From Candidatus Levyibacteriota bacterium (lineage in GTDB: Bacteria; Patescibacteriota; Microgenomatia; Levybacterales; UBA12049): 60,582 bases of DNA. The translations under genes were made by a program, and so were the position numbers. Below the pieces are notes generated by a model. The model saw only the letters and a list, made by a program, of their open reading frames with translations, did no database searches and had not been told where the DNA came from. Positions 1,794 through 55,692 of this stretch are shown in pieces. The DNA is taken from the NCBI GenBank assembly GCA_029260905.1, contig JAJDCH010000006.1, forward strand, positions 1-60,582. Reading direction: 5' to 3'. Within the stretch, counting starts at the first letter, position 1. Each line of letters starts with the position of its first letter.

Positions 1794-4442
1794 TTAGTGC
1801 ACATGATGAAGAAAAAATTGATTTTTATTATTGTAAGCCTTGAAAATATCGAAAAATCCTGTTACTACAAAAACCGCGCCAAATGCCAAAAGCCAACTCT
1901 CAATCCCAAGAGGCACTGTTTCAAAAACTTTATTAAGAGGTGTGTAGATAATTAGAATTGATGCTAGAACCGAAGTCAAGCTTGCAAAGACTAAATACTT
2001 ATTGACAAAGATGCTACTCCCAAATACCTGATGACGGAAAGAGCGGAATGTATAAGCATTGGCAATCTGCACCAAAATCATACTCAGGAGAACTGTTGTT
2101 CTGGCTGTTTCAGGTGGGAATTTGATTATATTAAAGGAAAGATATGCAACCACAAAGGCTACAATTCCCATAATTGAGCCGTTCAAAATAATAATATTTA
2201 TAAATTCATTAGTCAAAATTTTGGCATTTTTTCTCGGCCTTTCTTTCATAATGTCTTTTGAAGAAGGATTAAATCCAAGAGTGAGCGCAGGGATATTATC
2301 AGTCACAATATTCATAAATAAAATCTGGAGCGCTGTAACAACTGGTGTGTACCAGCCAAGAAAAGGCGCAACAAGCATACCCATAAAAATAATATAAATA
2401 TCAGAAAAATTACACGCCAGCTGATAAGTCACGAACTTACGGATATTGTTAAAAATAGTTCTTCCCTCTTTAATGGCAAGAACAATTGTCGCGAAGTTAT
2501 CGTCTTTTAATGTAATATCCGCAACTGAACGAGATACATCAGTACCATTTATTCCCATAGCTACACCTATGTGTGCCTCCTTGAGAGCTGGCGCGTCATT
2601 TACACCGTCTCCTGTCATAGTCACTATCTCATCATTTTCTTTTAATGCCTTTATAATCCTGAGCTTGTCTTCTGGCTTAACGCGCGCAAAAACTCCTATT
2701 TCATTAACAATTTTTGAAAGCTCCGAATCCGTCATTTCGTCAAGCTCATAACCTGTAACTGTTTTTCCAACAATACCAATTTGACGGGCAATTGCCTCAG
2801 CTGTTTCCTTATTATCTCCTGTTATCATCTTGACCTTTATCCCACTTGCCCTACAAAGCTCAATCGCCTCTGCCACTTCTTCGCGTGGACTGTCCTCCAT
2901 GCCAGCAATTCCAAGAAATGTTAGATCGTCTTCTGTGTAAGATTTGCTTTTATTTTCTTTATAGGCAAAACTCAATGTCCGAAGCGCTTTTGCTGAAAAT
3001 TTCTGATTTGCTGCCACTTGTTCTTTTCTTTTCTTATCAGTAAGTTTCTCGCGTTTACCATTAATAAGAATATGCGTACATTTTGGAAGAACGACTTCAA
3101 TTGCGCCTTTCACATAAAGTAGATTGGTATCTTTTTCTGGATAAAGAACTGACATCATTTTACGCTTGGAATCAAATGGTATCTCCTCAATACGTGACTT
3201 GAGGTAATTTTCCCTGAAAATATCAAGCTTTGCTGCAAGAACCAAAAGAGCGCCCTCAGTTGATGAGCCTATCACTTTATATTCTCCATCCTCTCCTTCT
3301 CTTTCGATATTTGAATCATTACAAATAACTGCTGTTTTTAAAATCATACTCAGGGCATTCTCCCATGCAAGAGAAATCTTTTTTCCATTTCCTGTTATAT
3401 TTCCCTGGATGTCATAACCAACGCCTGAAACGTGATAAGTCTTTCCATCTGCAAAAAGCGTCTCGACTGTCATCTCGCCTTTTGTCAAAGTACCAGTCTT
3501 GTCAGAGCAAATTACTGATGTCTCACCAAGAGTTTCAATAATTGACATCCTATTCACAACAGCATTTTGCTTTGACATGCGGCTCACGCCTGCTGCAAGG
3601 GTGGTTGTCAGAACAACCGGAAATCCTTCAGGAAATGAAGAAACAGCAAGCGCTATGATAATAATAAAAATCCCAACCAGCACATCAGGAGTAATTGCAT
3701 CAGCGCGAAGAAACAAAATAACACCAGTCAAAACTGCGGCAGTCATACTCACTACCACCATATATTTGGAAATGTTATTTATCTTATCCTGAAGTGGCAG
3801 ATGTTTTTCCGCGCCAGATATCATTCCTGCTATTTCTCCAAATTTGGTATTCATCCCTGTATGGAGAACTCTTGCAAAAGCCCGTCCGCTGACCACATAT
3901 GATCCCATAAACAGTAAATTTTCATCCAATAGTTCTTTTTCAAGATCAGTTGCCCTAATCTTTCTGATATCAGAAGACTCCCCTGTGAGAATTGACTCAT
4001 TTACACTTAGACTTGATTCTCTTACCACCACACAATCTGCTGGTATTTTATCACCCGTTCTCAGGACCACTATGTCCCCTGGAACAATCTCGCTTGATGG
4101 AATCTCTTTTTCGCGTCCATCTCTTATCACGCGTGAGACAGGCATAATCAATTTTTTCAAAGCGCTAATTGCCTTCTCCGCCTTATATTCCTGGATAAAC
4201 CCTGTAATCACAACAAGAGCAATAACGATCAATACCACCCAGCCAGTAAAACCTTTATCGATAGCAAAGGATGCAATCGCAGTAAGCGCAAGCAAATAAA
4301 CAACAAAGTTTTTTTTCACTTGCCTGAAGAGGATCTGAAGAGGCGAAACTTTATTCTTCTCCTTGATTTCATTTAGACCAAACTCTTTTAATTTTTCTTT
4401 GGCTTGTATGACTGTCAGTCCATCAAGTATATTTTTGGGCAT
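1794..4442 (-). CDS. Cation-transporting P-type ATPase (type IIA, Ca2+-like)
   Basis: DKTGTLT phosphorylation site, TGES, PEGFP, KGA, TGDGVNDAPAL motifs. Start placed at MPKN (4442) behind a TATCAT -10. Confidence 0.95.
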   Translation of the reverse strand: MPKNILDGLTVIQAKEKLKEFGLNEIKEKNKVSPLQILFRQVKKNFVVYLLALTAIASFAIDKGFTGWVVLIVIALVVITGFIQEYKAEKAISALKKLIMPVSRVIRDGREKEIPSSEIVPGDIVVLRTGDKIPADCVVVRESSLSVNESILTGESSDIRKIRATDLEKELLDENLLFMGSYVVSGRAFARVLHTGMNTKFGEIAGMISGAEKHLPLQDKINNISKYMVVVSMTAAVLTGVILFLRADAITPDVLVGIFIIIIALAVSSFPEGFPVVLTTTLAAGVSRMSKQNAVVNRMSIIETLGETSVICSDKTGTLTKGEMTVETLFADGKTYHVSGVGYDIQGNITGNGKKISLAWENALSMILKTAVICNDSNIEREGEDGEYKVIGSSTEGALLVLAAKLDIFRENYLKSRIEEIPFDSKRKMMSVLYPEKDTNLLYVKGAIEVVLPKCTHILINGKREKLTDKKRKEQVAANQKFSAKALRTLSFAYKENKSKSYTEDDLTFLGIAGMEDSPREEVAEAIELCRASGIKVKMITGDNKETAEAIARQIGIVGKTVTGYELDEMTDSELSKIVNEIGVFARVKPEDKLRIIKALKENDEIVTMTGDGVNDAPALKEAHIGVAMGINGTDVSRSVADITLKDDNFATIVLAIKEGRTIFNNIRKFVTYQLACNFSDIYIIFMGMLVAPFLGWYTPVVTALQILFMNIVTDNIPALTLGFNPSSKDIMKERPRKNAKILTNEFINIIILNGSIMGIVAFVVAYLSFNIIKFPPETARTTVLLSMILVQIANAYTFRSFRHQVFGSSIFVNKYLVFASLTSVLASILIIYTPLNKVFETVPLGIESWLLAFGAVFVVTGFFDIFKAYNNKNQFFLHHVH

Positions 4443-4500: not shown

Positions 4501-4644
4501 ATGTCAGAAGAAACAACCAAAACAGGTCAAGACCTGAGAGATGCAATAGTAGATAAATTCAACACTCCTGAAAAAACCTTTAAAGGTGGTTACTCTATCA
4601 GTCAGCAAATTGCTTATCGGCAAACCAGAGTACAAATTATTTAA
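4501..4644 (+). CDS. Unannotated 47-aa small ORF (MSEETTKTGQDLRDAIVDKFNTPEKTFKGGYSISQQIAYRQTRVQII)
   Basis: Read directly from sequence; extended -10 TG-A-TAAAAT lies 6 nt before the ATG; divergent from the ATPase. Confidence 0.5.
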   Translation: MSEETTKTGQDLRDAIVDKFNTPEKTFKGGYSISQQIAYRQTRVQII

Positions 4645-11482: not shown

Positions 11483-12376
11483 ATGAATAGCAACCAACTA
11501 AAAGATTTAAAACTCAAAGCCAATGAAATTCGTCGTCTTATTATCGAGGCGCTTGATGGCGCCAATCACAACACAGGCTCAGGACATACAGGCGGCCCGC
11601 TTGGCATGGCTGATGTGTTTGCCGCGCTTTATTTCAATTTCATGAAACACGATCCCCAAAATCCTGATGATCCAGATCGCGACAGGCTTCTTCTCTCCAA
11701 TGGTCATATTTGCGCAGTTCTCTACTCAAGCCTTGCTTTATCTGGCTATTTTCCAACTAGTGAGCTAAAAACATTTAGAGGTTTTGAAACACGTCTTCAG
11801 GGGCATCCTCACCGAGGCGTTCTCCCCGGTCTTGAGAACACATCAGGACCACTTGGTGAGGGACTTTCTCAAGCAATTGGCATTGCTCTTGCACGAGACA
11901 TTGATAAAAAGACCTACACTGTTTACTGCGCAACATCTGACGGTGAACACCAGGAGGGAAACATCTGGGAAGCTGTGATGCTTGCAGGCAAATTAAAAAT
12001 CAATAACCTAATTCAAATAATTGACTTTAACAACATCCAGATTGATGGACCGGTTGATAAGACCATGCCGCTTGAGCCTTTCCGCGCAAAATATGAATCA
12101 TTCAATTGGCATGTGATTGATATTGATGGCAATGATATGAAAGAGATAGTTGATGCAATCAGTCAAGCAAAGGAAATAAAAGACAAACCTGTTATCATAA
12201 TTGCGCGTACTATCCCTGGTAAGGGAGTCAGCTTTATGGAGGGTGATTACAGATGGCATGGGATGCCACCTGGCCTCAAAGATGTAAGCGGCGCGCCGCC
12301 AAAAGACGAACAGGTAGCAGTCGCATTTAAAGAGATTGAAGAAGAACGGAAAAAAATTATAATGGGGAAAGCGTGA
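11483..12376 (+). CDS. tktA: Transketolase, N-terminal (TPP-binding) subunit
   Basis: SGHTGGPLG, DRDRLLLSNGH, LQGHP, SGPLGEGLS, SDGEHQEG, NNIQIDG. Confidence 0.95.
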   Translation: MNSNQLKDLKLKANEIRRLIIEALDGANHNTGSGHTGGPLGMADVFAALYFNFMKHDPQNPDDPDRDRLLLSNGHICAVLYSSLALSGYFPTSELKTFRGFETRLQGHPHRGVLPGLENTSGPLGEGLSQAIGIALARDIDKKTYTVYCATSDGEHQEGNIWEAVMLAGKLKINNLIQIIDFNNIQIDGPVDKTMPLEPFRAKYESFNWHVIDIDGNDMKEIVDAISQAKEIKDKPVIIIARTIPGKGVSFMEGDYRWHGMPPGLKDVSGAPPKDEQVAVAFKEIEEERKKIIMGKA

Positions 12377-12782
12377 AGGGTGAAGGGTAAAGATAAAATA
12401 GATGGTAAAATCATATAAAGAACTCATTGTTTGGAAAAAATCAATGGAGATGGTAAGATTTATTTATCAACTAACAGAAAGCTTTCCAAAAGACGAGCTA
12501 TATGGTTTACGGTCTCAGATGGAAAGATCTGCTGTTGCAATCCCAAGCAATATTGCAGAGGGATATTTGAGACGACATCGCAAAGAGTATGTTCAGTTTT
12601 TATCAATATCCCTCAGCTCTGCAGCTGAACTTGAAACACAAATTCTTGTTTGTAAATCATTAAAAAAGTTTAAACATATAGATTTTTCTGAAACAGAATC
12701 ATTACTAAATGAGGTATTAAAAATGTTATTTGTTATGATAAATAAGATGGCTTGACGCTTAACCCTTAACGCTTTACGCTTA
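12368..12782. mobile_element. Four-helix-bundle gene enclosed by inverted heptamer arrays (full element)
   Basis: Left arm AAAGCGT-GAAGGGT-GAAGGGT-AAAG (12368-12392, contains the tktA stop); right arm CTTG-ACGCTTA-ACCCTTA-ACGCTTT-ACGCTT (12751-12782) is its near reverse complement. Mobility is inferred. Confidence 0.65.
12402..12755 (+). CDS. Four-helix-bundle protein (23S rRNA IVP / TIGR02436 family)
   Basis: SYKELIVWKKS, FPKDELYGLRSQMERSAVAIPSNIAEG, SAAELETQ signature. Confidence 0.92.
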   Translation: MVKSYKELIVWKKSMEMVRFIYQLTESFPKDELYGLRSQMERSAVAIPSNIAEGYLRRHRKEYVQFLSISLSSAAELETQILVCKSLKKFKHIDFSETESLLNEVLKMLFVMINKMA

Positions 12783-12785
12783 AAT

Positions 12786-13778
12786 ATGTTAAATCCAAAC
12801 TTAAAACTAAATACAAAATTATTTGACGTAGACGTTGAAAAAAAACCAACCCGCGCAGGCTTTGGCACAGGCCTTCTTGCTCTTGGCAAAAAAGACAAAA
12901 ATGTAGTCGGGCTTTGTGCTGATCTCACAGAGTCAACCCAAATGAACCTTTTTGCTGATGCATTTCCTGAGAGATTTTTCCAAGTCGGTGTTGCTGAGCA
13001 AAATATGGCAGCAGTTGCAGCAGGACTAGGAGTTACTGGCAAAACAGCTTTTATTTCCAGTTATGCTACTTTCTCCCCTGGTAAAAATTGGGAAACAATC
13101 AGAACCACAATTGTTTACAACAAAGCAAATGTCAAAATAGCAGGCCATCATTCAGGAATCATGACAGGTCCTGATGGAGCAACTCACCAAGCAACTGAGG
13201 ATATAGCCATAACACGCTGCTGGCCGGGTATTGAAGTATATGTTCCATGTGATGCAATTGAAGCAGAAAAAGCAACTATTGCGTCTGCTAAAACACAAAA
13301 ACCAGTTTATCTTCGCTACTCAAGAGACAAAACTCCGCTAATCACAACTGCAGATACACCTTTTGAGGTAGGCAAACTACAGGACTTCTGGGTCAGTGAA
13401 AATCCGCAAGTAACTATCTTTGCAACAGGCTATATGCTTTACTATGCATTAGTTGCCGCAAAAGAGCTTGAAGATGAAGGCATAAATACAATAGCTGTAA
13501 ATGTCGCAACCATTAAACCACTTGACTCAAATGAAGTTCTCAAATTTACCAATCAAACAAGCGCTGTTGTAACAGTTGAAGATCATCAAATAACAGGCGG
13601 CATGGGCAGTGCAATTGCTGAATCTCTGGCCAAAACCAATCCCCTGCCGATTGAGTTTGTCGGCATGCAAGACGTATTTGGCGAAACAGGAACACCAGCC
13701 CAACTCTTAAAGAAATACAAAATGAATCCTGAAGCAATCAAAGAAGCTGTAAAAAGAGTGATACGTAGAAAGCGTTAA
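12786..13778 (+). CDS. tktB: Transketolase, C-terminal subunit
   Basis: TRAGFG, ADLTES, GVAEQNM, GPDGATHQ, PVYLR, IKPLD, VEDH, GMGSAIAE. Confidence 0.95.
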   Translation: MLNPNLKLNTKLFDVDVEKKPTRAGFGTGLLALGKKDKNVVGLCADLTESTQMNLFADAFPERFFQVGVAEQNMAAVAAGLGVTGKTAFISSYATFSPGKNWETIRTTIVYNKANVKIAGHHSGIMTGPDGATHQATEDIAITRCWPGIEVYVPCDAIEAEKATIASAKTQKPVYLRYSRDKTPLITTADTPFEVGKLQDFWVSENPQVTIFATGYMLYYALVAAKELEDEGINTIAVNVATIKPLDSNEVLKFTNQTSAVVTVEDHQITGGMGSAIAESLAKTNPLPIEFVGMQDVFGETGTPAQLLKKYKMNPEAIKEAVKRVIRRKR

Positions 13779-13840
13779 GGGTAAAGCGTCAAGGGTGAAG
13801 TTTTTTTCTTTCCCCTTAGCGCTTAGCGCTTTCCCCTTAA
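13769..13840. repeat. Empty inverted heptamer-array hairpin (AAAGCGT/AAGGGT class)
   Basis: AAAGCGT-TAAGGGT-AAAGCGT-CAAGGGT-GAAG, T7 loop, CTTT-CCCCTTA-GCGCTTA-GCGCTTT-CCCCTTA. Confidence 0.85.
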
Positions 13841-13845
13841 ATATT

Positions 13846-15501
13846 ATGGATCAAAACCTGCTCACAGAATTAAAAGAACTTATCTCAGGTGATGTGGAAA
13901 CATCAGAAGAGGTACTAAGCAAATATTCACACGACGCAAGTATTTTTGAGATACGTCCTCAAGTCGTTGTCTTCCCCAAAACAGATGCCGACATCCAAAA
14001 TCTCATAAAATTCGTTGCCAAACACAAAAAAGAACACCCAGATCTCAATATCACAGCACGGGCTGCCAGCACCTGCATGTCAGGAGGAGGACTTGGCACA
14101 TCAATTATTGTTGCTTTCCAGAAATATTTTAACCATCAGCCAAAAATTGTGGGCAAAATAGCCTCAACTCAGCCTGGTGTTTTTTATCGTGATTTTGAGA
14201 AAGAAACCCTCAAACATGATCTAATTTTTCCCTCTTTCCCCTCCTCCCGTGAGATTTGCGCAATGGGCGGAATTGTCAATAACAACGCAGGCGGTGAAAA
14301 ATCTCTAGAGTATGGCAAAACTGAAGATTATATCCATTCACTACAAATGATCCTTGCTGATGGTAATGAATACGAAATAAAACCACTAAACAAAAATCAG
14401 CTTGAAGAAAAAATGGCGCAAGATAACTTTGAAGGCATAGTTTATAAAAAAACCTACGAACTTATAACTAATAACTTAGAGCTTATAACCAAAGCCAAGC
14501 CAAAGGTTAGCAAAAACTCAAGCGGCTATTTCCTCTGGAATGTCTGGGATCCTGAAAAAAAGGTCTTTGATCTTTGTAAATTATTTACCGGCGCGCAGGG
14601 AACTCTAGGCATCATGACTGAGGCTAAGCTCAAACTCGTGTCAACCAAAAAACACCGTGAAATGATGATTATTTTTCTTCATGACTTCAAACACTTAGCA
14701 GAAATCATCAATAAAGTCTTGCCTCTTGAACCTGAAAGTTTTGAGGCTTACGATGACAAAACGCTTAAGCTTGCTCTCAAATTCTTTCCCGCATTTTCCA
14801 AAAAACTTGGCACCAGATCTGTTCTGACAACTGCGCTCGAATTTTTGCCTGAAATGCAAATGTACAAAGATCACAAACTCCCCAAGCTCGTCATGCAAAT
14901 TGATTTTGCTGATGATCACCTATCAGTTCTTAAAGAGAAAATAAATGATCTGACTGAGAAACTCCAATCAATTCATCCGAATGATGTCAAAGTAGCAATT
15001 GATACTGAAGAAAAAAAATACTGGCTGATCAGACGAGACAGCTTCGGCCTTCTGAGAAAACACGTTGAGAATATGTATTCTTCCCCTTTTATTGATGACA
15101 TCGTTGTTAATCCTGAACATCTGCCTGAGTTTTTACCACAATTTAATCAGATTTTGGATAAATATCCATCTGTAATTGGCACTTTTGCAGGACACGTCGG
15201 AAACGGCAATTTTCACTTTATCCCGCTTGTCGATCTCAAAGATCCCAAAGAACAAAAACTAATTCCCCAAATCTGTGATGAAGTTTTTAAGCTTGTCATC
15301 AAATACGGTGGCTCAACATCTGGCGAGCATAATGATGGCTGGATAAGAACACCTTTTATGAAATATCAGTTTGATGAGAAGATCCTAAAGCTTTTTGAGG
15401 AAACCAAAAATATTTTTGATCCAGATGGGATATTTAACCCACACAAAAAAGTCAACGGAGATCTGGATTTTGCTATGAAGCATGTAAGAACTAGTTGGTA
15501 G
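13846..15501 (+). CDS. FAD-binding oxidoreductase (GlcD/D-lactate dehydrogenase-like)
   Basis: YSHDASIF, PQVVVFP, MGGIVNNNAGG, GAQGTLG, GHVGNGNFH, GEHNDG, DPDGIFNP. Start at ATG 13846 after the hairpin. Confidence 0.88.
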   Translation: MDQNLLTELKELISGDVETSEEVLSKYSHDASIFEIRPQVVVFPKTDADIQNLIKFVAKHKKEHPDLNITARAASTCMSGGGLGTSIIVAFQKYFNHQPKIVGKIASTQPGVFYRDFEKETLKHDLIFPSFPSSREICAMGGIVNNNAGGEKSLEYGKTEDYIHSLQMILADGNEYEIKPLNKNQLEEKMAQDNFEGIVYKKTYELITNNLELITKAKPKVSKNSSGYFLWNVWDPEKKVFDLCKLFTGAQGTLGIMTEAKLKLVSTKKHREMMIIFLHDFKHLAEIINKVLPLEPESFEAYDDKTLKLALKFFPAFSKKLGTRSVLTTALEFLPEMQMYKDHKLPKLVMQIDFADDHLSVLKEKINDLTEKLQSIHPNDVKVAIDTEEKKYWLIRRDSFGLLRKHVENMYSSPFIDDIVVNPEHLPEFLPQFNQILDKYPSVIGTFAGHVGNGNFHFIPLVDLKDPKEQKLIPQICDEVFKLVIKYGGSTSGEHNDGWIRTPFMKYQFDEKILKLFEETKNIFDPDGIFNPHKKVNGDLDFAMKHVRTSW

Positions 15502-15522
15502 TTAGGATGCTTAGGAGGCCTT

Positions 15523-16575
15523 TTAGTGTGCTGGAACAGGGAATCCGTTCTGTTTGCACCATTCAGCAAACTCATCAGCAGGCATTGTTTGCTTTCTTAC
15601 ATCATACTGAATTTGCTTAGCATCAACTTCTACTTTTACATCTACATCTGAATCTCCACCTTCAGCATTAGCTTTTGCATCTCCGCCCTCTGCTTTTGCA
15701 TCTGAGTTTGCGCTTGAGTTTGCTTCTGATTTTGAAGTTCCAATTCCATCGTTGTTTGATGTTGCTTTTCCGCCTTCAGCTGTGATATCACCTATTTCTA
15801 CAAGTCCATTAGGAAGCTCTGTTATGCCTTCTGTTTCTTCAGTTGTCTTGATTCTAGCATTTGGACTCCTGAAGTTAACATCTCTTGATCCAACCACTGA
15901 ATCGGTAATAGTAGTAGTTTTGCCCAGGTTACAGACATCTCCTTTTCCTACTGAAATTGTATCACCCTTGACTATGCAGATTTCTTTTTGTTTCTGCTTT
16001 GAAAATACAGAACCTTCTCCGCTTATTTGTCCCTGTGAACCATCTCCGCTAACATCTACTGACTTGTCACCAAATGATAAGTTTTTCAAATCATCTAAGT
16101 TTATATGAGTTGTATTTGGACCTGCAATTATCTGTATTCCTCTTTCATTTTCACCTACTTGAACACTTTTTACTTCAAATGATGGTTTTGCTGGACGATA
16201 TGATGTTCTTTTTGGTGCTGCTGGTTTTGCTGGAGACTCTTTCTTGCCGTGGTGTGCTGGATCTCCACATGCACAGTCCTGAAGCTCAGCAACTGCTGCT
16301 GTCAATCCATTTATTTGTGTCGTAAGTGCTGATAAATGTGCTGTTGTGTCTGATGATGCCAACTGGGCTTCTAAACTTCCTTGAAGAGCTGATACTTCAC
16401 CATGTAGTGCTTCCATATTCCCTTTGTATTGTTCTCCGGCAAGATGTGCGCCTGTAACTCCTCCAGTTGCTGCGAGCGCAACCGCTCCTATAACTGTTCC
16501 AATTTTTCCTTGCCCTGTTTCGCCAGAAAATTTGGAAGGTGTTCTGTGTTTTGGTTGATATTCTTTATTGCTCAT
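15523..16575 (-). CDS. Hypothetical membrane-anchored protein with coiled coil and repetitive beta-rich C-terminus
   Basis: Long ORF; hydrophobic anchor, heptad region, AEGG repeats; no family recognised. Confidence 0.65.
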   Translation of the reverse strand: MSNKEYQPKHRTPSKFSGETGQGKIGTVIGAVALAATGGVTGAHLAGEQYKGNMEALHGEVSALQGSLEAQLASSDTTAHLSALTTQINGLTAAVAELQDCACGDPAHHGKKESPAKPAAPKRTSYRPAKPSFEVKSVQVGENERGIQIIAGPNTTHINLDDLKNLSFGDKSVDVSGDGSQGQISGEGSVFSKQKQKEICIVKGDTISVGKGDVCNLGKTTTITDSVVGSRDVNFRSPNARIKTTEETEGITELPNGLVEIGDITAEGGKATSNNDGIGTSKSEANSSANSDAKAEGGDAKANAEGGDSDVDVKVEVDAKQIQYDVRKQTMPADEFAEWCKQNGFPVPAH

Positions 16576-16693
16576 ATTTTTATAAAATTAATTATTTTGT
16601 TGGGACAGATTTTTATTTTTATTTTCGGGGCAGAAAATTTATTTATATTTATTTATATTTATTTTGGCAGTGATAAGCATTATAGGGTGTCAT

Positions 16694-16721
16694 TGTAAGT
16701 TTTATGTAAGAAGCATGTAAG
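16694..16721. promoter_or_regulatory. Three TGTAAG direct repeats at 11-bp period (possible OmpR/PhoB-type box)
   Basis: TGTAAG at 16694, 16705 and 16716. Confidence 0.45.
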
Positions 16722-16885
16722 AGTTCGTGCCTGAATGATTTATTTTTTTCGTTTTTATTTCTTATTTCTTTCTAGTTTTGTATCCTCTAGGTAATTATTA
16801 TAACACTTATTTTATATCAAGACGAACTATTTTCTGATTAAAAGCAGTCCTTGAATTTTAATAAAATAATGTTTAAGATAGATTT

Positions 16886-17926
16886 ATGTCTGATAATTTA
16901 GCTGATATTGCAAGATCGCTTGTCGCAAAAGGCAAAGGCATTCTTGCAGCAGATGAATCATCCCCCACCTGCGCGAAGCGCTTTGACTTAGTTGGTATCG
17001 AATGTACCGAAGAGACACGTCGTGAGTACAGAGAGCTGCTTTTGACTACACCTGAGGCAAGTCAGCATATGAGTGGTGTGATTCATTTTGATGAGACTTT
17101 CTGGCAATCAACAGACTCGCAGACCTTCCCCGAATATCTTAAATCCCAAAACATCATACCAGGCATCAAAGTAGACAAAGGCCTCATCCCACTTGATAAA
17201 TTTGAGGGTGAGAAGATCAGCCAGGGTCTTGACGGACTAAAAGAACGCATGGATAAATACTTTGAATCAGGCGCTAGATTTGCTAAATGGAGATCGGTTA
17301 TCGCAATTGGCGATGGCATTCCGACCCCCCAATGCATACAAGCCAACGCATTTGTCCTCACCCGCTATGCCGCCATCTGCCAGGCAGCCGGGATAGTGCC
17401 AATCGTTGAACCCGAAGTATTGTACGATGGTACACATACTATAGATAGTTGCTATGAAACCATTATCAAGGTTTATGATGCCCTCTTTGGCTCACTCAGA
17501 GAATACAGAGTAGATATGTCAGGGGTGATCCTTAAGACAAGTATGGTTCTTCCTGGAAAAACATCAGGAATATCCATAAATTATGATGAAGTCGCCGAAA
17601 AAACAGTCAAAGCGCTTCACGAACATCTACCACAAGACCTGGGAGGTGTGGTTTTCCTATCAGGAGGTCAAACCAGCAACGATGCATTTATAAACTTAAA
17701 TAGAATCGCAAAACTTGGTCCACACCCATGGGGTCTTACCTTCTCCTACTCAAGAGCGCTTCAAGATCCAGTCCTCAAACTCTGGGCCAAAGACAGAGAA
17801 AACAAAAAAGCAGTTCAGGAGCTTTTTGCAAATCAACTCAGGCTGGCTGGAGCTGCAAGCCTTGGCGAACTGAACGAATCTGAGCTACACGATAATACTG
17901 AGGCTACCAAATCCCAAGACCTCTAG
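16886..17926 (+). CDS. Fructose-bisphosphate aldolase class I
   Basis: KGILAADES, IPGIKVDKG, GARFAKWR, IVPIVEPEV, FLSGGQ, TFSYSRALQ. Confidence 0.95.
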   Translation: MSDNLADIARSLVAKGKGILAADESSPTCAKRFDLVGIECTEETRREYRELLLTTPEASQHMSGVIHFDETFWQSTDSQTFPEYLKSQNIIPGIKVDKGLIPLDKFEGEKISQGLDGLKERMDKYFESGARFAKWRSVIAIGDGIPTPQCIQANAFVLTRYAAICQAAGIVPIVEPEVLYDGTHTIDSCYETIIKVYDALFGSLREYRVDMSGVILKTSMVLPGKTSGISINYDEVAEKTVKALHEHLPQDLGGVVFLSGGQTSNDAFINLNRIAKLGPHPWGLTFSYSRALQDPVLKLWAKDRENKKAVQELFANQLRLAGAASLGELNESELHDNTEATKSQDL

Positions 17927-17927
17927 A

Positions 17928-18278
17928 AAATAACCCAATACTACCAATAACCCAATCAGCAAATCAATGCAGAATACCAGATGTAGAATAATTTGTTTCT
18001 TTACCTTCTTTTCTAACTATTGCATATTTTGCAATAAAATCTTTTCTGCTATCTGTTCCGTCTGCTTCTTGATCGTTTGCTCCCATTGAAGTAGCTGAGC
18101 GTGTTATCTGAGTTATTATAATAATATTCTCAGGAGTCTTTGGAAGTTGTTTTACTAATTTTAAAATCCTTATTATAAATTGATAAATTCTTTCATGAAT
18201 ATCCTGAATCTTTTCTGTGTTTTGCATTGGATTATTGATTAGTAGTATTTGTAGTATTGGTTTATTTGTTTATTTATT
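17928..18278. mobile_element. Inverted octamer arrays enclosing a truncated four-helix-bundle gene
   Basis: Arm 17928-17981 (AATAACCC/AATACTACC/AATCAGCA) and arm 18214-18278 (reverse complement AATAAACA/AATACTAC/AATAATCC). Mobility is inferred. Confidence 0.6.
17964..18227 (-). pseudogene. Four-helix-bundle (IVP family) gene lacking its C-terminal helix
   Basis: DIHERIYQF...LPKTPEN...QITRSATSMGANDQEADG...DFIAKYAIVRKEGKETNY then abruptly STSGILH*; roughly 30 aa shorter than the 117-aa paralogue. Confidence 0.75.
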
Positions 18279-19253
18279 AACCATCTCCTCCATCTCATCT
18301 CTTGTCAGAAGCCCTGCTTCAGCGCCTATGTGGCCAACCACTGATGAGGAATTGACAGCTCCCCAACCCATCGCATCAGGAATATTCATTCCCTGAACAA
18401 TTGCAGCCAAGAAGCCTGAAGCATATGCATCCCCTGCTCCTGTCCGCTCTATCGGCTCTCCAGGAATCAATCCGCGAAGGTAAAAATTACCATCCATATC
18501 AAGCGCGCTTGATCCTTCCTTGCCATTTGTTATTACCACAACACGTGGTCCCAATTTCTGCAACTCTTTGGATAATTTACGGATATACTCCTCACTATCA
18601 TCATCTGTTTTTTTATAGTGACCATAAAGAATACGCTCAGCCTCCTCTTTGTTTACAAAAAGAGCTTCAGTATTTCTAATTACTTCTTCGAATACTTCTC
18701 CTTGATCTTTAAGCTGGGTACTTCCAGGATTAAATGCTATTTTGGCTTTTTGCTTTTTGACAAAATCAAGAACTGTTTTATAAGGCTTTTCCCATTCTCT
18801 TCCTAGACTAGTCAGATAAATCCAACCTGCCTCTACATCCTCTAAATGAAAATCATGCTCCTGCTCACGCTCTTCAGCAAAAATAGTCCGATCTCCTGCA
18901 AAATTTATAATAACCGACAGGTTTGATGGCGCGTTTCTCTTCTCAACCATCAAAAGCCTTTCAATATTTTCTTTAGCAAGGCTATTTCTGATTTTAATTG
19001 AAAATTCATCATCCCCAACCTCTGCAACAATAGTTGCCTTGACACCAAGTCTAGACAAACCAACAGCCACATTAGCAGCATTTCCACCCATTTGAAATAC
19101 ATATTCATCAACCACTATCTTTTCACCAAGGCGAAAACAAACCCCGCCTGCATGTACACTGTCCTTATGCAATTCTTTTTGAGAATCATGAATTTTCATG
19201 TAGGCATCCAGCCTGGCAGTTCCAACTGTTATCACATCATATTTTCTGACCAT
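18270..19253 (-). CDS. PfkB-family carbohydrate kinase
   Basis: GGNAANVAVGLSRLG, FNPG, NKEE, VITNGKEGS, ERTGAGDAYASGF. Confidence 0.92.
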   Translation of the reverse strand: MVRKYDVITVGTARLDAYMKIHDSQKELHKDSVHAGGVCFRLGEKIVVDEYVFQMGGNAANVAVGLSRLGVKATIVAEVGDDEFSIKIRNSLAKENIERLLMVEKRNAPSNLSVIINFAGDRTIFAEEREQEHDFHLEDVEAGWIYLTSLGREWEKPYKTVLDFVKKQKAKIAFNPGSTQLKDQGEVFEEVIRNTEALFVNKEEAERILYGHYKKTDDDSEEYIRKLSKELQKLGPRVVVITNGKEGSSALDMDGNFYLRGLIPGEPIERTGAGDAYASGFLAAIVQGMNIPDAMGWGAVNSSSVVGHIGAEAGLLTRDEMEEMVNK

Positions 19254-21880: not shown

Positions 21881-21979
21881 ATGATTTACTTAATACTTAT
21901 CGGAGCTTTAGTTTTTATCCCATTTCAGTTGTGGAAAATTCTCAAACCCCAACCAGCCAAAACACCCTCTAACAAATAA
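21881..21979 (+). CDS. Unannotated 32-aa single-TM peptide (MIYLILIGALVFIPFQLWKILKPQPAKTPSNK)
   Basis: Read directly; hydrophobic N-half and basic tail; lies just downstream of a near-consensus promoter. Confidence 0.55.
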   Translation: MIYLILIGALVFIPFQLWKILKPQPAKTPSNK

Positions 21980-21982
21980 CTC

Positions 21983-22100
21983 TCTAATTTTAATATCTAA
22001 ACACCAAATAAATCCAAAATATAAATATCTAATTTGTTTTGGAATTTGTACTTTTACTATTTGGTATTGTTTAGGATTTAGAATTTAGAGCTTAGGATTT
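21983..22100. repeat. Empty inverted heptamer-array hairpin (TCTAAAT class)
   Basis: AATATCT-AAACACC-AAAT...AAATATCT then GGAATTT...AGGATTT-AGAATTT-AGAGCTT-AGGATTT; overlaps the msrB stop. Confidence 0.75.
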
Positions 22101-22511
22101 ATCTTCCTTTTTCTTGAACTCAAGAGCTGCGGAGTTGATACAATAGTGCTGATTGGTTGGAGAAGAATTATCGTCAAACAAATGCCCCAGATGACCGCCA
22201 CACGTTTTACAAACTACTTCCGTTCGGGACATTCCCAAACTATTATCTTGGACTAGCTCAACCGTGTCCCTACTTGCCACATCAGCAAAGCTCGGCCAGC
22301 CCTCGAGTCCAGGAACATCTGATTCATACTTGGCATCACTCTTAAAAAGCACGCTCCCACAACCAGCACACGTATAGTCGCCTGTTTGACTATTTTGCAA
22401 AAGCTCTCCTGTCCCCGGGCGCTCCGTTCCCTTCTCTCGCAGTACTTTATACTGCTCAGGCGTCAGTCTTTCCTTCCAATATTTGTCGTCCTTGTCCCGC
22501 ATGTTGCCCAT
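22092..22511 (-). CDS. msrB: Peptide methionine-R-sulfoxide reductase
   Basis: LTPEQYKVLREKGTERP, CAGC, GWPSF, RTEVVCKTCGGHLGHLF, YCINS. Confidence 0.95.
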   Translation of the reverse strand: MGNMRDKDDKYWKERLTPEQYKVLREKGTERPGTGELLQNSQTGDYTCAGCGSVLFKSDAKYESDVPGLEGWPSFADVASRDTVELVQDNSLGMSRTEVVCKTCGGHLGHLFDDNSSPTNQHYCINSAALEFKKKEDKS

Positions 22512-30487: not shown

Positions 30488-30595
30488 AATTCTAAACTCT
30501 AAATACTAATATCTAAATCCTAAATAATTTCAAAATTCTAATTTAGAAATCATATTGTTTTGTACTTTTACTTTCGGTCATTTGATATTATTTAA
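30488..30595. repeat. Empty inverted heptamer-array hairpin (TCTAAAT class)
   Basis: AATTCT-AAACTCT-AAATACT-AATATCT-AAATCCT arm and GTACTTT-TACTTTC...GATATTATTT arm between the prs stop and recR start. Confidence 0.75.
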
Positions 30596-34641: not shown

Positions 34642-34661
34642 ACTTCTCCTTTCAGTCGAAG

Positions 34662-34763
34662 AATACTACAAATAAACAAATAAGCCAATAAACAAATTTA
34701 TTGGAGATTTTTAATTGAGTTATTGATTGGTAGTATTTGCATATTGGGTTATTGATAGTATTT
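34662..34763. repeat. Empty inverted octamer-array hairpin
   Basis: AATACTACA-AATAAACA-AATAAGCC-AATAAACA versus ATTGAGTT-ATTGATTG-GTAGTATTTG...TAGTATTT. Confidence 0.8.
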
Positions 34764-36880: not shown

Positions 36881-36931
36881 TAATAAACCAATCAACTAAT
36901 TATCCAATGCAATTTGTTTATTAGTTGATTA
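36881..36931. repeat. Empty inverted octamer-array hairpin
   Basis: AATAAACC-AATCAACTAAT ... ATTTGTTT-ATTAGTTGATT. Confidence 0.8.
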
Positions 36932-38610: not shown

Positions 38611-38697
38611 TTGGAATTAGAAATTAAGAATTAGGAAATTACATCTCTGTCTCACATATATTAAAACCGTCGCATTTTCCGCGTTCGCGGGATTTTG

Positions 38698-46837: not shown

Positions 46838-46846
46838 ATTTTGAAA

Positions 46847-46956
46847 ATTTCTAAGCTCTAATTTCTAATTACCTAATCAAATCCTAATTATAAATTTATA
46901 AATTAGGTTTTAGACATTTTTTAGAAATTAGGTTAATTTAAGTCAATTAGGAATTA
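46847..46956. repeat. Empty inverted heptamer-array hairpin (TCTAAAT/TTCTAAT class)
   Basis: ATTTCTA-AGCTCTA-ATTTCTA-ATTACCTA versus TAGAAAT-TAGGTTAAT...TAGGAAT between the tsf stop and frr start. Confidence 0.8.
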
Positions 46957-46962
46957 CAAAAA

Positions 46963-51800: not shown

Positions 51801-52795
51801 TTATTTTTTATTTTTGGGTCTTCTCTTCTCTCCTGCCTTAAGCTTTGGTAAAGGGTCATAATATCCGCCGGCCACAGTCAGCTCTGCCTTGATAGTCGGG
51901 TGTGGTTCGTAGCCGATCAACTCAACGTGTTCGGGTCGAAAATCTGACAAACCCTTGAATTTGCCAAGTTTTAGCTTTGGAAAAGACTTTGGTTTTCTTT
52001 TCAGCTGCTCTTTAACTTGTGCTACATGATTTTCATAAATATGCGCATCACCATATGTATGGATAAACTCCCCGGGTTTATAACCCAAGATTTTGGCAAG
52101 TATCACAGCAAGAAGTGAATAACTGCCGATATTAAAAGGCACACCAAGAAACATATCACAACTTCTCTGATACAGATGCAGCGACAACTTGTTGTCTTTG
52201 ACACTTACCTGATACATATTGTGACAAATTGGAAAATATGATGTCTCATCTTTCTCCGCCATACTGTAGAGATATTCAGGATTCCAGCTGTTAACTATTG
52301 CGTTTCTGGCATCAGGGTCTTCACTCAATTCTTTAATTACCCATGAGAGCTGATCAATTGTCTTCCCTTTTTTCCTTGTCGGCCATCTCCTCCACATCTC
52401 TCCATAAATACGCGGCAGCTCTCCCCATTTCTTGGCAAACTTCGCATCTGTCCTAATCTTTTCTATAAACTCCTCTTTTGTCAGCTTTTTGCTTTTTGCT
52501 TTTTGCTATATATCTTATATGGGTAGTCATCCCAGATGTGGACATTGTTATCAACTAGATATTTGATGTTGGAGTTACCTGACAAGAACCAATACAGCTC
52601 CTTGAGAACTCCGTTCCAGTACACTCTTTTGGTTGTCAAAAGCGGAAAACTTTCTGACAAATCATACCTAGACTGTCTACCAAAAACGCTGTATGATTTG
52701 ACCCCAGTCCCTCGATCTACATTGACAACTCCATTTTTGAGGATGTCTTTGAGAAGATCTAAATATTGATGCTCTTGATGTTTGTCTCCTGCCAT
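51801..52795 (-). pseudogene. thyA: Thymidylate synthase split by a frameshift in a (GCAAAAA)3 repeat
   Basis: N-part: QYLDLL, DRGTG, FPLLTTKRV, ELYWFLSG, IWDDY. C-part in another frame: LTKEEFIEK...WGELPRIYG, PICH, QRSCDMFLGVPFN, DAHIYENH. Confidence 0.85.
52486..52506. repeat. Perfect heptamer tandem repeat (TTTTTGC)3
   Basis: Read directly at the thyA frame break. Confidence 0.9.
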
Positions 52796-52854
52796 AATAT
52801 CTACCCAATACTACCAATAACCAAGTAAACAAATCAAGCAATAAATTTTCCACC

Positions 52855-52892
52855 ACACATCTTTTTACAACGATCGTTTCAAAAAGATGTGT
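52855..52892. repeat. 38-bp imperfect palindrome
   Basis: ACACATCTTTTT-ACA-ACGATCGT-TTC-AAAAAGATGTGT. Confidence 0.85.
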
Positions 52893-52968: not shown

Positions 52969-54015
52969 TCAAAGCTGATCGTTAATCAAAAATGCCAGAA
53001 CTAGTGAAACTGCCAGGCCAAATCCTGCTCTCAAAAGATCTTTTCTCACTAACTTCAACGTATGTGAGTAAGGTTTTTTCTTATGAAGTGTTGCACGTAG
53101 CGCAATCTCCCGCCCTGCAAGTAGGCCCAGGAATACCCAAGTCGTACTCATCGGCAAATCATTTATCCATTTGAAATAAACCAAGACCAAACCATATACA
53201 AAATCTATAATTGTTGCAGATTTTACATATAAAACATCTGTTTTCTCTGTAACAACTTTCTGAATCTCTCCTCCCCTGCGAGAGATGATATATCCAAGCG
53301 CAAAAAACATAAACAGCAAAACAACAATTGCCTCAAATCCGCTCAAGACTCGGGGTAAATATACTGTAGCATTGGCTGCATCTTGAGTAAGCCAAGCGCT
53401 CCACAGAAATCCTGTTGACAACCATTGCAGTATGCGCCACTTTCTTTCTTGTTTTTTGGTAAGCTTTCGATCAAGCTTTTGCTGTCTTTTTTTGACTAAA
53501 TATCCAATGGCTCCCCAGACAAGAAGCGCCACCAGGAACGAAAGGATATATCCAGTAATGGTTTTGTTTATCATGCCGGTTATTGTTTTTGAGGAAGAAA
53601 ATGTGGCAAGAATCAAAAAAGTAGTTGACACAGGCATCCTATATCTCGTCAATGAAATCAATATAATCGGTGCCAGAAGCTGAAGAAAAGAAAAATCACT
53701 TGGCTGAGGGATTCTATTTAACCTGTCAAAACTCACACTCCCTGCATTTGCAAACCAACCATATCCAAGAGTCACAAGCATAATCCCACCCATAAAAAGC
53801 CAGAGGATTTTCCAGGGAGTATTTCTATTGGAAGATAAAAAAGTACCTAGCGTCTGAATACTGTCATTACTAACTGTTGAAAACGCGGCTACCGCAAATC
53901 CAAACCACATTGCTAAAATCGGCTGATCAAATATAATCCCAGCTGTCAGAATTAGAACTGACATTATAGAAATAAAAACTACGTTGTTGCCGAAAAACGC
54001 ACGAGCTGCTCTCAT
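52969..54015 (-). CDS. Multi-pass membrane protein, distantly PiT/PHO4 (phosphate/sulfate permease)-like
   Basis: SNDSIQTLGTF, MPVSTT, QDAANATV and PMSTTWV resemble the duplicated PiT signatures. Confidence 0.55.
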   Translation of the reverse strand: MRAARAFFGNNVVFISIMSVLILTAGIIFDQPILAMWFGFAVAAFSTVSNDSIQTLGTFLSSNRNTPWKILWLFMGGIMLVTLGYGWFANAGSVSFDRLNRIPQPSDFSFLQLLAPIILISLTRYRMPVSTTFLILATFSSSKTITGMINKTITGYILSFLVALLVWGAIGYLVKKRQQKLDRKLTKKQERKWRILQWLSTGFLWSAWLTQDAANATVYLPRVLSGFEAIVVLLFMFFALGYIISRRGGEIQKVVTEKTDVLYVKSATIIDFVYGLVLVYFKWINDLPMSTTWVFLGLLAGREIALRATLHKKKPYSHTLKLVRKDLLRAGFGLAVSLVLAFLINDQL

Positions 54016-54142: not shown

Positions 54143-54180
54143 ACACATTTTTTATACACGATCGTGTATAAAAAATGTGT
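54143..54180. repeat. Perfect 38-bp palindrome
   Basis: ACACATTTTTTATACACGATCGTGTATAAAAAATGTGT equals its own reverse complement. Confidence 0.92.
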
Positions 54181-54866: not shown

Positions 54867-54871
54867 AAATT

Positions 54872-54941
54872 AAATAAATCAGCAAATCAACTAATTCCCA
54901 ATCATCTAATTATCCAATTAACTTGCTGCTTGGTTGATTGC
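54872..54941. repeat. Inverted octamer-array hairpin with one arm inside the tmk 3' end
   Basis: AATAAATC-AGCAAATC-AACTAATT-CCCAATCA-TCTAATTA versus ACTTGCTG-CTTGGTTG-ATTGC (encodes AINQAAS*). Confidence 0.65.
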
Positions 54942-55589: not shown

Positions 55590-55593
55590 AAAA

Positions 55594-55689
55594 AATCAAC
55601 TAATTTCCAATTAACCAATCATCTAATTATAAACCCTCAAAATGTATTGTTTAATTTGTTGATTGGTTTATTAGATGATTTGTTTATTA
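55594..55689. repeat. Empty inverted octamer-array hairpin
   Basis: AATCAACT-AATTTCC-AATTAACC-AATCATCT-AAT versus ATTGTTTA-ATTTGTTG-ATTGGTTT-ATTAGATG-ATTTGTTT-ATT. Confidence 0.85.
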
Positions 55690-55692
55690 CAA

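Follow-up and report, generated by a model that had tools for sequence, protein, structure and literature searches.

What is the short open reading frame (ORF), walled in on both sides by inverted arrays of short repeats, that fills the spacer between a pfkB-family kinase gene (18270-19253, minus strand) and a class I fructose-bisphosphate aldolase gene (16886-17926, plus strand) in the genome of a Candidatus Levyibacteriota bacterium? The locus lies on a 60,582-nt stretch of DNA (contig JAJDCH010000006.1, assembly GCA_029260905.1), the whole of which is called the window here, and its two neighbours are convergent. The ORF (17964-18227, minus strand) encodes 87 aa of an Avd-like protein of family PF05635, "23S rRNA intervening sequence protein" (IVP). 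We consider that the locus is probably a decaying copy of a stem-loop cassette that resembles the intervening sequences (IVSs) of rRNA genes, is embedded in operons, and is gained and lost at intergenic sites.

The 87-aa product matches PF05635 at 47.6 bits (curated cut-off 33.8) over positions 4-74 of the 106 in the profile only, which marks it as a truncated member, short of a complete four-helix bundle of ~110-125 aa. When 5.8 billion proteins were searched, 819 homologues were recovered; the best 120 of these are nearly all 118-125 aa long, are 73-90% identical to the window product and align over residues 1-80 only. Homology ends exactly after ...KEGKETNY, and the final seven residues, STSGILH, found no match in the protein alignment. 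DNA alignment with four intact relatives (L004, L001, L003 and L005) resolved the difference into one gap of ~126 nt, which starts at the TGG of codon 81, takes out codons 81-120 together with the stop codon and ends a few bases further on. The junction falls at 17986|17987, the base at which blastn alignments to 40 related loci all terminate. On its near side, codons 1-80 (17988-18227, minus strand) encode helices 1 and 2, the SMGANDQEA motif within helix 2, and most of helix 3, with 87.5% amino acid identity to the syntenic intact copy (L004). On its far side, the ORF now runs seven codons into the inner 3' flank and reads STSGILH and a stop codon (17964-17987, minus strand) from a segment which is complementary to the start-codon region and lies outside the coding sequence of intact copies. 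In an AlphaFold (AF2) model of an intact relative, P0001 (predicted local distance difference test score, pLDDT, 92), helices span residues 10-26, 32-57, 61-88 and 90-119. Because homology stops at residue 80, inside the third of these, the window product is without the end of helix 3 and the whole of helix 4, and the deletion has also taken W81, L82, I85, D87, N89, E102, E105, I109 and I113, which are invariant in 30 relatives. An earlier note, made from the sequence of the window alone, had held that a gene of the SMGANDQEA type loses its last helix after KETNY; the end of homology, the helix map and the deletion all agree with this, and the alignment with intact homologues that the note had proposed is what placed the junction.

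The same note had named a conserved, intact 87-aa form as the finding that would overturn its view. That the short product is such a functional form is highly improbable. In its 90%-identity cluster the 87-aa form is the sole short member (the other three have 120, 120 and 119 aa), and the junction recurs with zero differences in contigs from two runs of one biofilm study, all from one population; the nine invariant residues and helix 4 are missing, and the tail is read-through into the flank. Two relatives of 93 aa, P0072 and P0090, do suggest that some shortened versions may persist: they have in common an in-frame loss of 27 codons between two EGKE repeats and differ at roughly one quarter of aligned positions (by eye), and their short form may therefore have lasted. 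No longer allele was seen among the low-depth biofilm contigs, which came from three DNA runs, showed the truncated form throughout and would let rare variants escape notice, and a metagenome scan with the pfkB protein found no near-identical genome with an intact allele (best match 61% identity). Judged by these alignments, the window gene is a truncated copy that arose by the ~126-nt deletion and is a singleton, and its product is very probably inactive. An array-mediated origin of the deletion was considered and rejected; the right breakpoint lies outside any array unit. A separate truncated IVP of 80 aa (P0047, locus L002) breaks within one base of the start of the window's deletion. There, L002 (650) and the intact L011 (1742) are 99.5% identical up to the break and unrelated beyond it, a pattern that could mean a hot spot or a chimeric assembly.

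Units of the form [C/A]AATNNNN(N), arranged as inverted arrays, take up the pfkB|aldolase spacer around the truncated ORF. The 5' arm (18228-18275, minus strand) overlaps the pfkB stop codon (18270-18272), reaches the IVP start codon and is free of G on the sense strand (AAATAAAC AAATAAACC AATACTACA AATACTACT AATCAAT AATCC); it can be aligned with the arm of the syntenic cassette in L004. The 3' arm (17927-17963, minus strand) begins right after the aldolase stop codon, is G/T-rich on the sense strand and reads AAAATAACCC AATACTACC AATAACCC AATCAGCAAAT on the plus strand, an imperfect complement of the 5' arm. Positions 17928-17949 and 18246-18267 are 91% complementary over 22 nt, positions 17954-17977 and 18217-18240 are 75% complementary over 24 nt, and Tandem Repeats Finder returned period 8 on either side of the ORF, in line with the inverted 8-mer arrays described in the earlier note.

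Folding of the 361-nt element gave a free energy (dG) of -67.5 kcal/mol against -51.3 +/- 4.75 for shuffled sequences (z -3.4), with a predicted terminal stem made of both arms and of an inner pairing, CAATGCAAAACACAGA / TCTGGTATTCTGCATTG, which exists in the sequence and occurs in both the minimum free energy and the centroid fold of the transcript. The predicted fold therefore has terminal inverted repeats that form a stem around the ORF. As a duplex, the tail segment and the start-codon region reach -13.1 versus -7.5 when shuffled (z -2.4). The stem does extend into coding sequence, as had been claimed, on the start-codon side; on the 3' side the partner of the inner pairing is coding in the window only because of the deletion, and in intact relatives it is non-coding and lies directly past the stop codon. 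Among 19 close relatives, the sequences that make up this pairing of start region and post-stop segment vary; L015, for one, uses ATGACAAAA/TTTTGTCAT. Promoter and terminator scans of the truncated locus returned nothing above chance, and an Rfam search of window positions 12000-19000, rRNA families included, gave no match. Between the window and L004, synonymous divergence (dS) is saturated in the IVP and aldolase genes and ~2 in pfkB, yet the arms at this site are ~83% identical (counted on the alignment), which implies that the arms are constrained or homogenised.

The window holds a second, intact IVP cassette (12369-12783, plus strand), in the spacer between two transketolase subunit genes, with a 117-aa gene of the SNIAEG/XCC0516-like subfamily (12402-12755) between heptamer arrays (GTGAAGG / GCTTAAC). 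We fetched 68 loci with relatives of the truncated gene (all but three from the Candidate Phyla Radiation, CPR, or Patescibacteria), 39 with relatives of this second IVP and 80 with relatives of Xanthomonas XCC0516, and scored arm pairing as the match of the upstream 90 nt to the reverse complement of the downstream 90 nt. The median score was 36 for IVP genes (n=98) versus 14 for neighbouring genes (n=211, 95th percentile 20.5), and 85% of the 98 IVP genes exceeded the neighbours' 95th percentile (Mann-Whitney p 1e-34). The third, independent set, from >15 phyla, gave a similar picture, 57/74 IVP genes (77%) passing the same threshold, and arm-arm duplexes averaged -38.6 kcal/mol versus -24.0 for shuffled arms (p 4e-17). 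Cassettes of the IVP type thus occur across bacterial phyla, with arms that pair far above chance.

When intact, such a cassette measures ~475 bp and consists of a 120-aa Avd-like gene between inverted arrays of 3-6 short tandem units; it takes in everything between the stop codon of the gene before it and the start codon of the gene after it, the arrays (median ~45 nt per side) filling the spacers. Lineages differ greatly in their units: CPR has GTGAAGG/GTAAAGC; Nitrospirota, Omnitrophota, Desulfobacterota and Chloroflexota have GGGTCAA/GGGGCAA; Pyrinomonadaceae have CGTGAAT and GTGACAG; Thermomicrobiales have GGGCAAA; Xanthomonas has GGGAATC; and Oscillospiraceae have GTAATGC. Both neighbours were visible at 86 loci; 57 of these cassettes lie between co-directional genes and 56 of the 57 are co-oriented with them, while the remaining cassettes are co-oriented with one neighbour. 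The ratio of nonsynonymous to synonymous substitution (dN/dS) between intact copies is ~0.05-0.1, a value that points to strong purifying selection on the protein.

A conserved, promoter-like string, CATATTGGCAAAA followed after ~17 nt by TAGAAT, stands directly before the array wherever a cassette heads a transcription unit (L005, L006, L007, L018, L043 and L061, ~20-60 nt upstream of the 5' arm). In one CPR clade (L026, L027, L037, L040, L043 and L061) array units (ATG TCA AAT ACT ACA AAT) supply the codons of the annotated N-terminus, MSNTTN; either the array enters the ORF or the true start lies further downstream.

The two IVPs of the window share 20% identity and are not linked by phmmer, the second matching PF05635 at 123 bits, and one is flanked by octamers and the other by heptamers. 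Among the fetched loci, protein identity correlates with 6-mer similarity of the flanks (Spearman 0.70, Mantel p 0.001), and the correlation is also found inside each of the two subfamilies (0.42 and 0.38, p 0.001 each). Seven genomes, the window's included, carry two IVPs of different clades; the flanks of each are closer to flanks of its own clade in other genomes (mean Jaccard 0.161) than to those of the other IVP in its own genome (0.078), and were so in 13/13 comparisons. The association of repeat class with protein clade is real and independent of the host. The earlier note had proposed that each repeat class has its own cognate protein subfamily: the association upholds this, whereas the repeat period is not strictly bound to subfamily. 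Period 7 occurs in 22-23/25 arms of the second-IVP set and in 50/58 arms of the XCC0516 set, and the CPR clade of the truncated gene has mostly period 8 (range 7-9), since it mixes units such as AATAAACA and AATACTACC. Heptamers also occur in L069, a relative of the SMGANDQEA type from Oscillospiraceae. Drift of the units is gradual, CGTGAAT and GTGACAG accompanying proteins that are 75-79% identical. Recognition of the units by the protein could produce the association, and so could mere physical linkage; the data fit either.

It is very hard to credit that the arrays are no more than the simple repeats, liable to slippage, or the terminator hairpins that a genome rich in A and T may have, and that an IVP gene came to lie among them by chance. 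Many spacers of the window genome do carry arrays with no IVP gene, and heptamer repeats are generally common in bacteria (PMC4679880). Paired arms, however, surround 85% and 77% of IVP genes in three independent samples of many phyla and GC contents versus 5% of neighbours, units of one class go with proteins of one clade from genome to genome, and a terminator-like site was not found at the truncated locus.

To compare the same spacers between genomes, all window proteins were aligned to the fetched loci by tblastn. The pfkB|aldolase spacer, truncated cassette in the window, holds an intact 119-aa cassette in the Levyibacteriota genome of L004 and, in L200, three units of the truncated-cassette class after pfkB with no gene, a one-arm remnant; in five metagenomic relatives, brought to light by the scan with the pfkB protein, it is clean, with 0-25 nt between the genes and no arrays. 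At ybeY|dnaX, intact cassettes of two other clades (L031 and L037) and a hairpin of a further class (L191) stand in place of the window's ORF-less element of 106 nt (34656-34761, minus strand; dG -19.1, z -2.0), which fills the spacer and whose units (AATACTATC AATAACCC AATATGCA AATACTACC AATCAAT ... TTTGTTTATTGGCTTATTTGTTTATTTGTAGTATT) belong to the octamer class of the truncated cassette. The dcd|tmk spacer, with intact cassettes in L040 and L047, is filled in the window by an ORF-less hairpin (55590-55692, minus strand). Between tmk and the dUTPase-like gene dut, the cassette is intact in L011 and truncated in L002, and the window has a one-armed array (54867-54917, minus strand). Four relatives (L009, L012, L026 and L039) carry intact cassettes at dut|thyA; in the window, a one-armed array of the octamer class (52796-52850, minus strand) lies directly upstream of thyA-N, and the rest of the spacer is a foreign insertion bounded by palindromes. 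Between a 298-aa gene (g298) and the HIT gene, where locus L191 carries P0002, the intact relative nearest to the truncated gene, the window has a short ORF-less hairpin of 33 nt (36896-36928, minus strand); the two differ in class, class A for the cassette versus AATCAACT/AATTATCC for the hairpin. The heptamer-class cassette that separates the transketolase subunit genes in the window lies before the first subunit gene in L072, where it replaces a 5-nt spacer (g436|TK-N) exactly from stop codon to start codon. No target-site duplication was visible at the two comparable occupied and empty sites, g436|TK-N and pfkB|aldolase.

Leaving aside the site of the truncated gene, eight spacers house a cassette in some other genome, and five of the eight bear arrays in the window; with array-bearing spacers at ~28% overall, the hand-computed binomial p is ~0.04. 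Each of two protein clades (identity 74-93% inside a clade and 53-68% from one to the other) is found at many spacers, and one spacer can hold either. Decay is frequent: besides the window copy there are the break in L002, frameshifts in L067 and L109, a 5' truncation in L076 and the in-frame loss in P0072 and P0090. Since the states of a spacer range over clean, hairpin, one-armed, truncated and intact, cassettes are gained, replaced and lost at spacers. The decay by deletion towards empty hairpins that the earlier note had envisaged is supported in part, by the defined deletion, by the other broken copies and by hairpins where relatives hold cassettes. It does not cover all sites: the class of a hairpin often differs from that of the site's cassette and pfkB|aldolase is clean in five relatives, which points to gain, replacement and independent insertion of hairpins as well. 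Not every ORF-less hairpin need be a cassette remnant. The strings CAATTAAAAAT (in 34656-34761) and CCAATGCAA (in 36896-36928), examined as vestiges of an IVP start codon, were downgraded because the start codon sits in a unit-like octamer, AATGCAAA, and such strings can be ordinary units.

These mismatches of class also bear on a different order of events, in which the hairpin arrays are the primary, self-spreading units, like miniature inverted-repeat transposable elements or REPINs (hairpins of repetitive extragenic palindromic, REP, sequences), and the IVP is a nested, single-copy partner acting in trans; ORF-less hairpins would then be mostly independent insertions or landing pads and not remnants of gene loss. 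We hold this to be possible but doubtful. The window has at least a dozen ORF-less arrays versus two IVP genes, among them a heptamer hairpin (13768-13841, plus strand; AAAGCGT TAAGGGT AAAGCGT CAAGGGT ... CCCCTTA GCGCTTA GCGCTTT) 1 kb downstream of the intact cassette, and 16/20 such arrays fall in the non-coding 9% of the sequence. A spacer hairpin is often of another class than the relatives' cassette (ybeY|dnaX shows four states or classes), and there is one IVP copy per clade per genome, with no bursts. In X. campestris, a GGGAATC family with 186 arrays and 70 convergent pairs was described in 2015 with no mention of a protein; Xanthomonas genomes have 70-75 convergent inverted pairs each, conserved in position and variable in length (PMC4692102). 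Orthologues of XCC0516 are nested in such arrays: they lie between accB and accC with CGGGAAT CGGGAGT GGAGAAT upstream and the complement downstream, as in X. hortorum (L113, 1152-1605; also L111, L112 and L114). Set against this order of events are the decay intermediates (the window locus, L002, L067, L109 and L076), the one-armed remnants at sites where relatives hold full cassettes, and an IVP that has no known catalytic domain; it also overlaps with the decaying, operon-embedded cassette that we prefer and does not exclude it.

How would such a cassette work? Co-orientation and filled spacers suggest that it is expressed on host transcripts, that is, transcribed within the host operon. 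In the RNA, the arms would pair imperfectly into a long stem, with the ORF looped out and its start codon covered, as in the 23S rRNA IVS, a geometry that would keep the flanking cistrons adjacent. By analogy, this stem is a likely substrate of RNase III and a likely target of the putatively pentameric, RNA-binding IVP itself; the model is placed at the RNA level because of RNA binding by Avd and the processing of the Coxiella IVS. Spread from spacer to spacer probably takes place by recombination between arrays of the same class, the arms being the probable means because there is neither a recombinase nor a target-site duplication.

Several observations weigh against the preferred reading. 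A search for RNA runs of the organism found DNA runs only. Sense strands fold slightly better than antisense strands in the CPR clade (49 vs 13) and no better in the other subfamily, so that selection at the RNA level is not proven against a role at the DNA level. Differences between units, as we read the arrays, are mostly A/C transversions, which yield a G-U wobble on neither strand. In 19 close relatives, the start region pairs only modestly with the post-stop segment (mean z -0.86, significant in 5/19). By the sequence divergence at pfkB|aldolase, where dS is saturated, long vertical residence would fit that site as well as recent movement does, and the pattern in the nucleotide-metabolism cluster dcd-tmk-dut-thyA could also stem from an ancestor with several copies that were lost differentially.

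The near equality of sense and antisense folds and the lack of G-U wobble among unit variants are what one would expect if the arrays were iteron-like binding sites or cruciform arms for an IVP pentamer, with cassettes moving or persisting by DNA recombination and the orientation bias reflecting a need for host promoters. The order and number of units vary between close relatives while the unit types are kept, and the ~83% identity of the syntenic arms despite saturated dS would suit this too. We nevertheless judge it rather unlikely, given that Avd, the nearest characterised homologue, acts on RNA stem-loops, that the processing of IVP cassettes within rRNA genes takes place on RNA, and that orientation is biased 56:1.

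Comparison of folds places the IVP among known structures. The intact relative P0001 matches PF05635 at 57.8 bits, TIGR02436 at 74.9 (cut-off 24) and 2RLD at E 9e-16, and the second window IVP matches 2GSC (XCC0516) at E 1.7e-22. With Foldseek, the model of the intact relative aligned to 2RLD (template modelling score, TM, 0.80-0.89), 2GSC (~0.8) and Avd 4DWL (0.75-0.83), with 8UB7, the ribonucleoprotein of a diversity-generating retroelement, also listed; 2GSC, 2RLD and 4DWL are homopentamers of five chains each.

The likeness to the 23S rRNA IVS of Coxiella, Leptospira and CPR lies in a PF05635 ORF looped out by terminal inverted repeats, in the heptamers that stand by the start codon in Coxiella, in their variable number and in deletions of the ORF. 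In the Coxiella IVS, which contains an S23p ORF, RNase III cuts a terminal stem of 28 bp, GACAGAT heptamers stand in tandem and in variable number before the start codon, and one strain has lost 176 bp of the ORF (PMC4990558); the occurrence of rRNA IVSs is scattered (10.1101/2024.02.27.582315). The window cassette differs in lying outside an rRNA gene, between protein-coding genes in operons, and its type of arm consists wholly of tandem 7-9-nt units. In diversity-generating retroelements (DGRs), Avd forms a pentamer of positive charge and binds a stem-loop in the RNA of the element to which it belongs, and the sequences flanking the template pair and loop out the segment between them (10.1101/2023.10.23.563531). 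The four-helix-bundle fold of DGR Avd (4DWL, 8UB7) is homologous to that of the IVP, and the second window IVP weakly matches the bAvd and DGR-Avd models, below their cut-offs. That the truncated gene is an Avd remnant of such a retroelement is barely conceivable all the same, as its neighbours are the aldolase and pfkB genes, no reverse transcriptase adjoins it or the other cassettes, no template/variable repeats were noted beside them (no search aimed at such pairs was made), and at related loci the cassette stands alone between housekeeping genes.

In its family-wide layout, the system appears closest, by analogy, to REPINs and their REP-associated tyrosine transposases (RAYTs), with an unrelated protein and no known catalytic activity. 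The REP/REPIN and RAYT layout (Nunvar 2010, Bertels & Rainey 2011, Ton-Hoang 2012) reportedly places a gene between inverted copies of a repeat, further copies of which lie scattered between genes as hairpins without an ORF; each protein clade has a repeat class of its own, a genome usually has a single gene for each class, and the protein is said to be under purifying selection. The IVP, by contrast, is a small helical bundle in which only PF05635 was matched and no HUH/Y1 transposase domain was found; its repeats are short tandem units and not a unique palindrome, and the position of its gene is not conserved between genomes. Tandem intergenic heptamers, often in convergent inverted pairs, are also known from Xanthomonas (GGGAATC), Nostoc (GGGGA(C/T)T) and, as short tandemly repeated repetitive (STRR) sequences, from cyanobacteria; they were described with no linked protein and have been discussed as G-quadruplex formers. 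The AAT-anchored octamer/nonamer class of the window is unlike the GGGAATC-type heptamers: one of its arms is free of G, and it cannot form quadruplexes.

Some further features of the window and of related genomes were recorded. Arrays and hairpins of other classes (TTTAGAA / TCTAAAT / AATTTCT) lie at 21958-22101, 30488-30577, 38611-38641 and 46838-46962, and the window has no IVP gene of a matching class. In L191, TCAAAAN units stand before the S21 gene (3780-3950) and CTCAGAAT units in ybeY|dnaX (4527-4639); with these two further classes, many array families coexist in genomes related to the window. In L072, the spacer between the transketolase subunit genes (2735-2899) has no cassette and contains a 130-nt G+C-rich sequence in an AT-rich genome. 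Thymidylate synthase is split in the window (51801-52795, minus strand) into 104 aa (profile positions 1-84) and 198 aa (98-266) with an 83-nt gap, and is split also in L009, L012, L026 and L039. Upstream of it, two similar 38-nt perfect or near-perfect palindromes (52855-52892 and 54143-54180; ACACATNTTTTTAYAMCGA|TCG...) bracket a 348-aa membrane-protein gene (52969-54015) with a weak PHO4 match, all within the dut|thyA spacer, the site of an IVP cassette in four relatives. This palindrome-bounded gene looks like a separate insertion that displaced a cassette, of which one arm remains.

A broader proposal, which we advance tentatively, is that PF05635 proteins act together with tandem-unit hairpins, each specific to its class, as a two-component system of wide occurrence. 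In it, an Avd-like pentamer would recognise the 7-9-nt units that belong to it, possibly with one unit for each protomer, either as RNA or as single-stranded DNA, and would maintain, process or disperse the hairpin arrays. No statement of a general link between gene and repeat was met in the literature searched, subscription titles lying outside the coverage; the Coxiella heptamers and the Xanthomonas repeats were the only related finds. Papers on a Beggiatoa TAACTGA repeat and on UCYN-A proved irrelevant to such a link. If true, the proposal would explain the rRNA IVSs, the Xanthomonas GGGAATC and cyanobacterial STRR heptamers and the origin of DGR Avd.

PF05635/TIGR02436 is a very common family of unknown function, with hundreds of homologues per search from many phyla, and intergenic heptamers and rRNA IVSs have been described for decades without a mechanism; nested genes, clade-specific units and alternating states of the same spacer tie them together. 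Xanthomonas offers a tractable case, in that the 2GSC structure and the GGGAATC repeats have both been published and have not yet been linked. For annotation, the finding means that many short "four helix bundle protein" calls and the odd AT- or G-rich hairpins of spacers are one kind of element.

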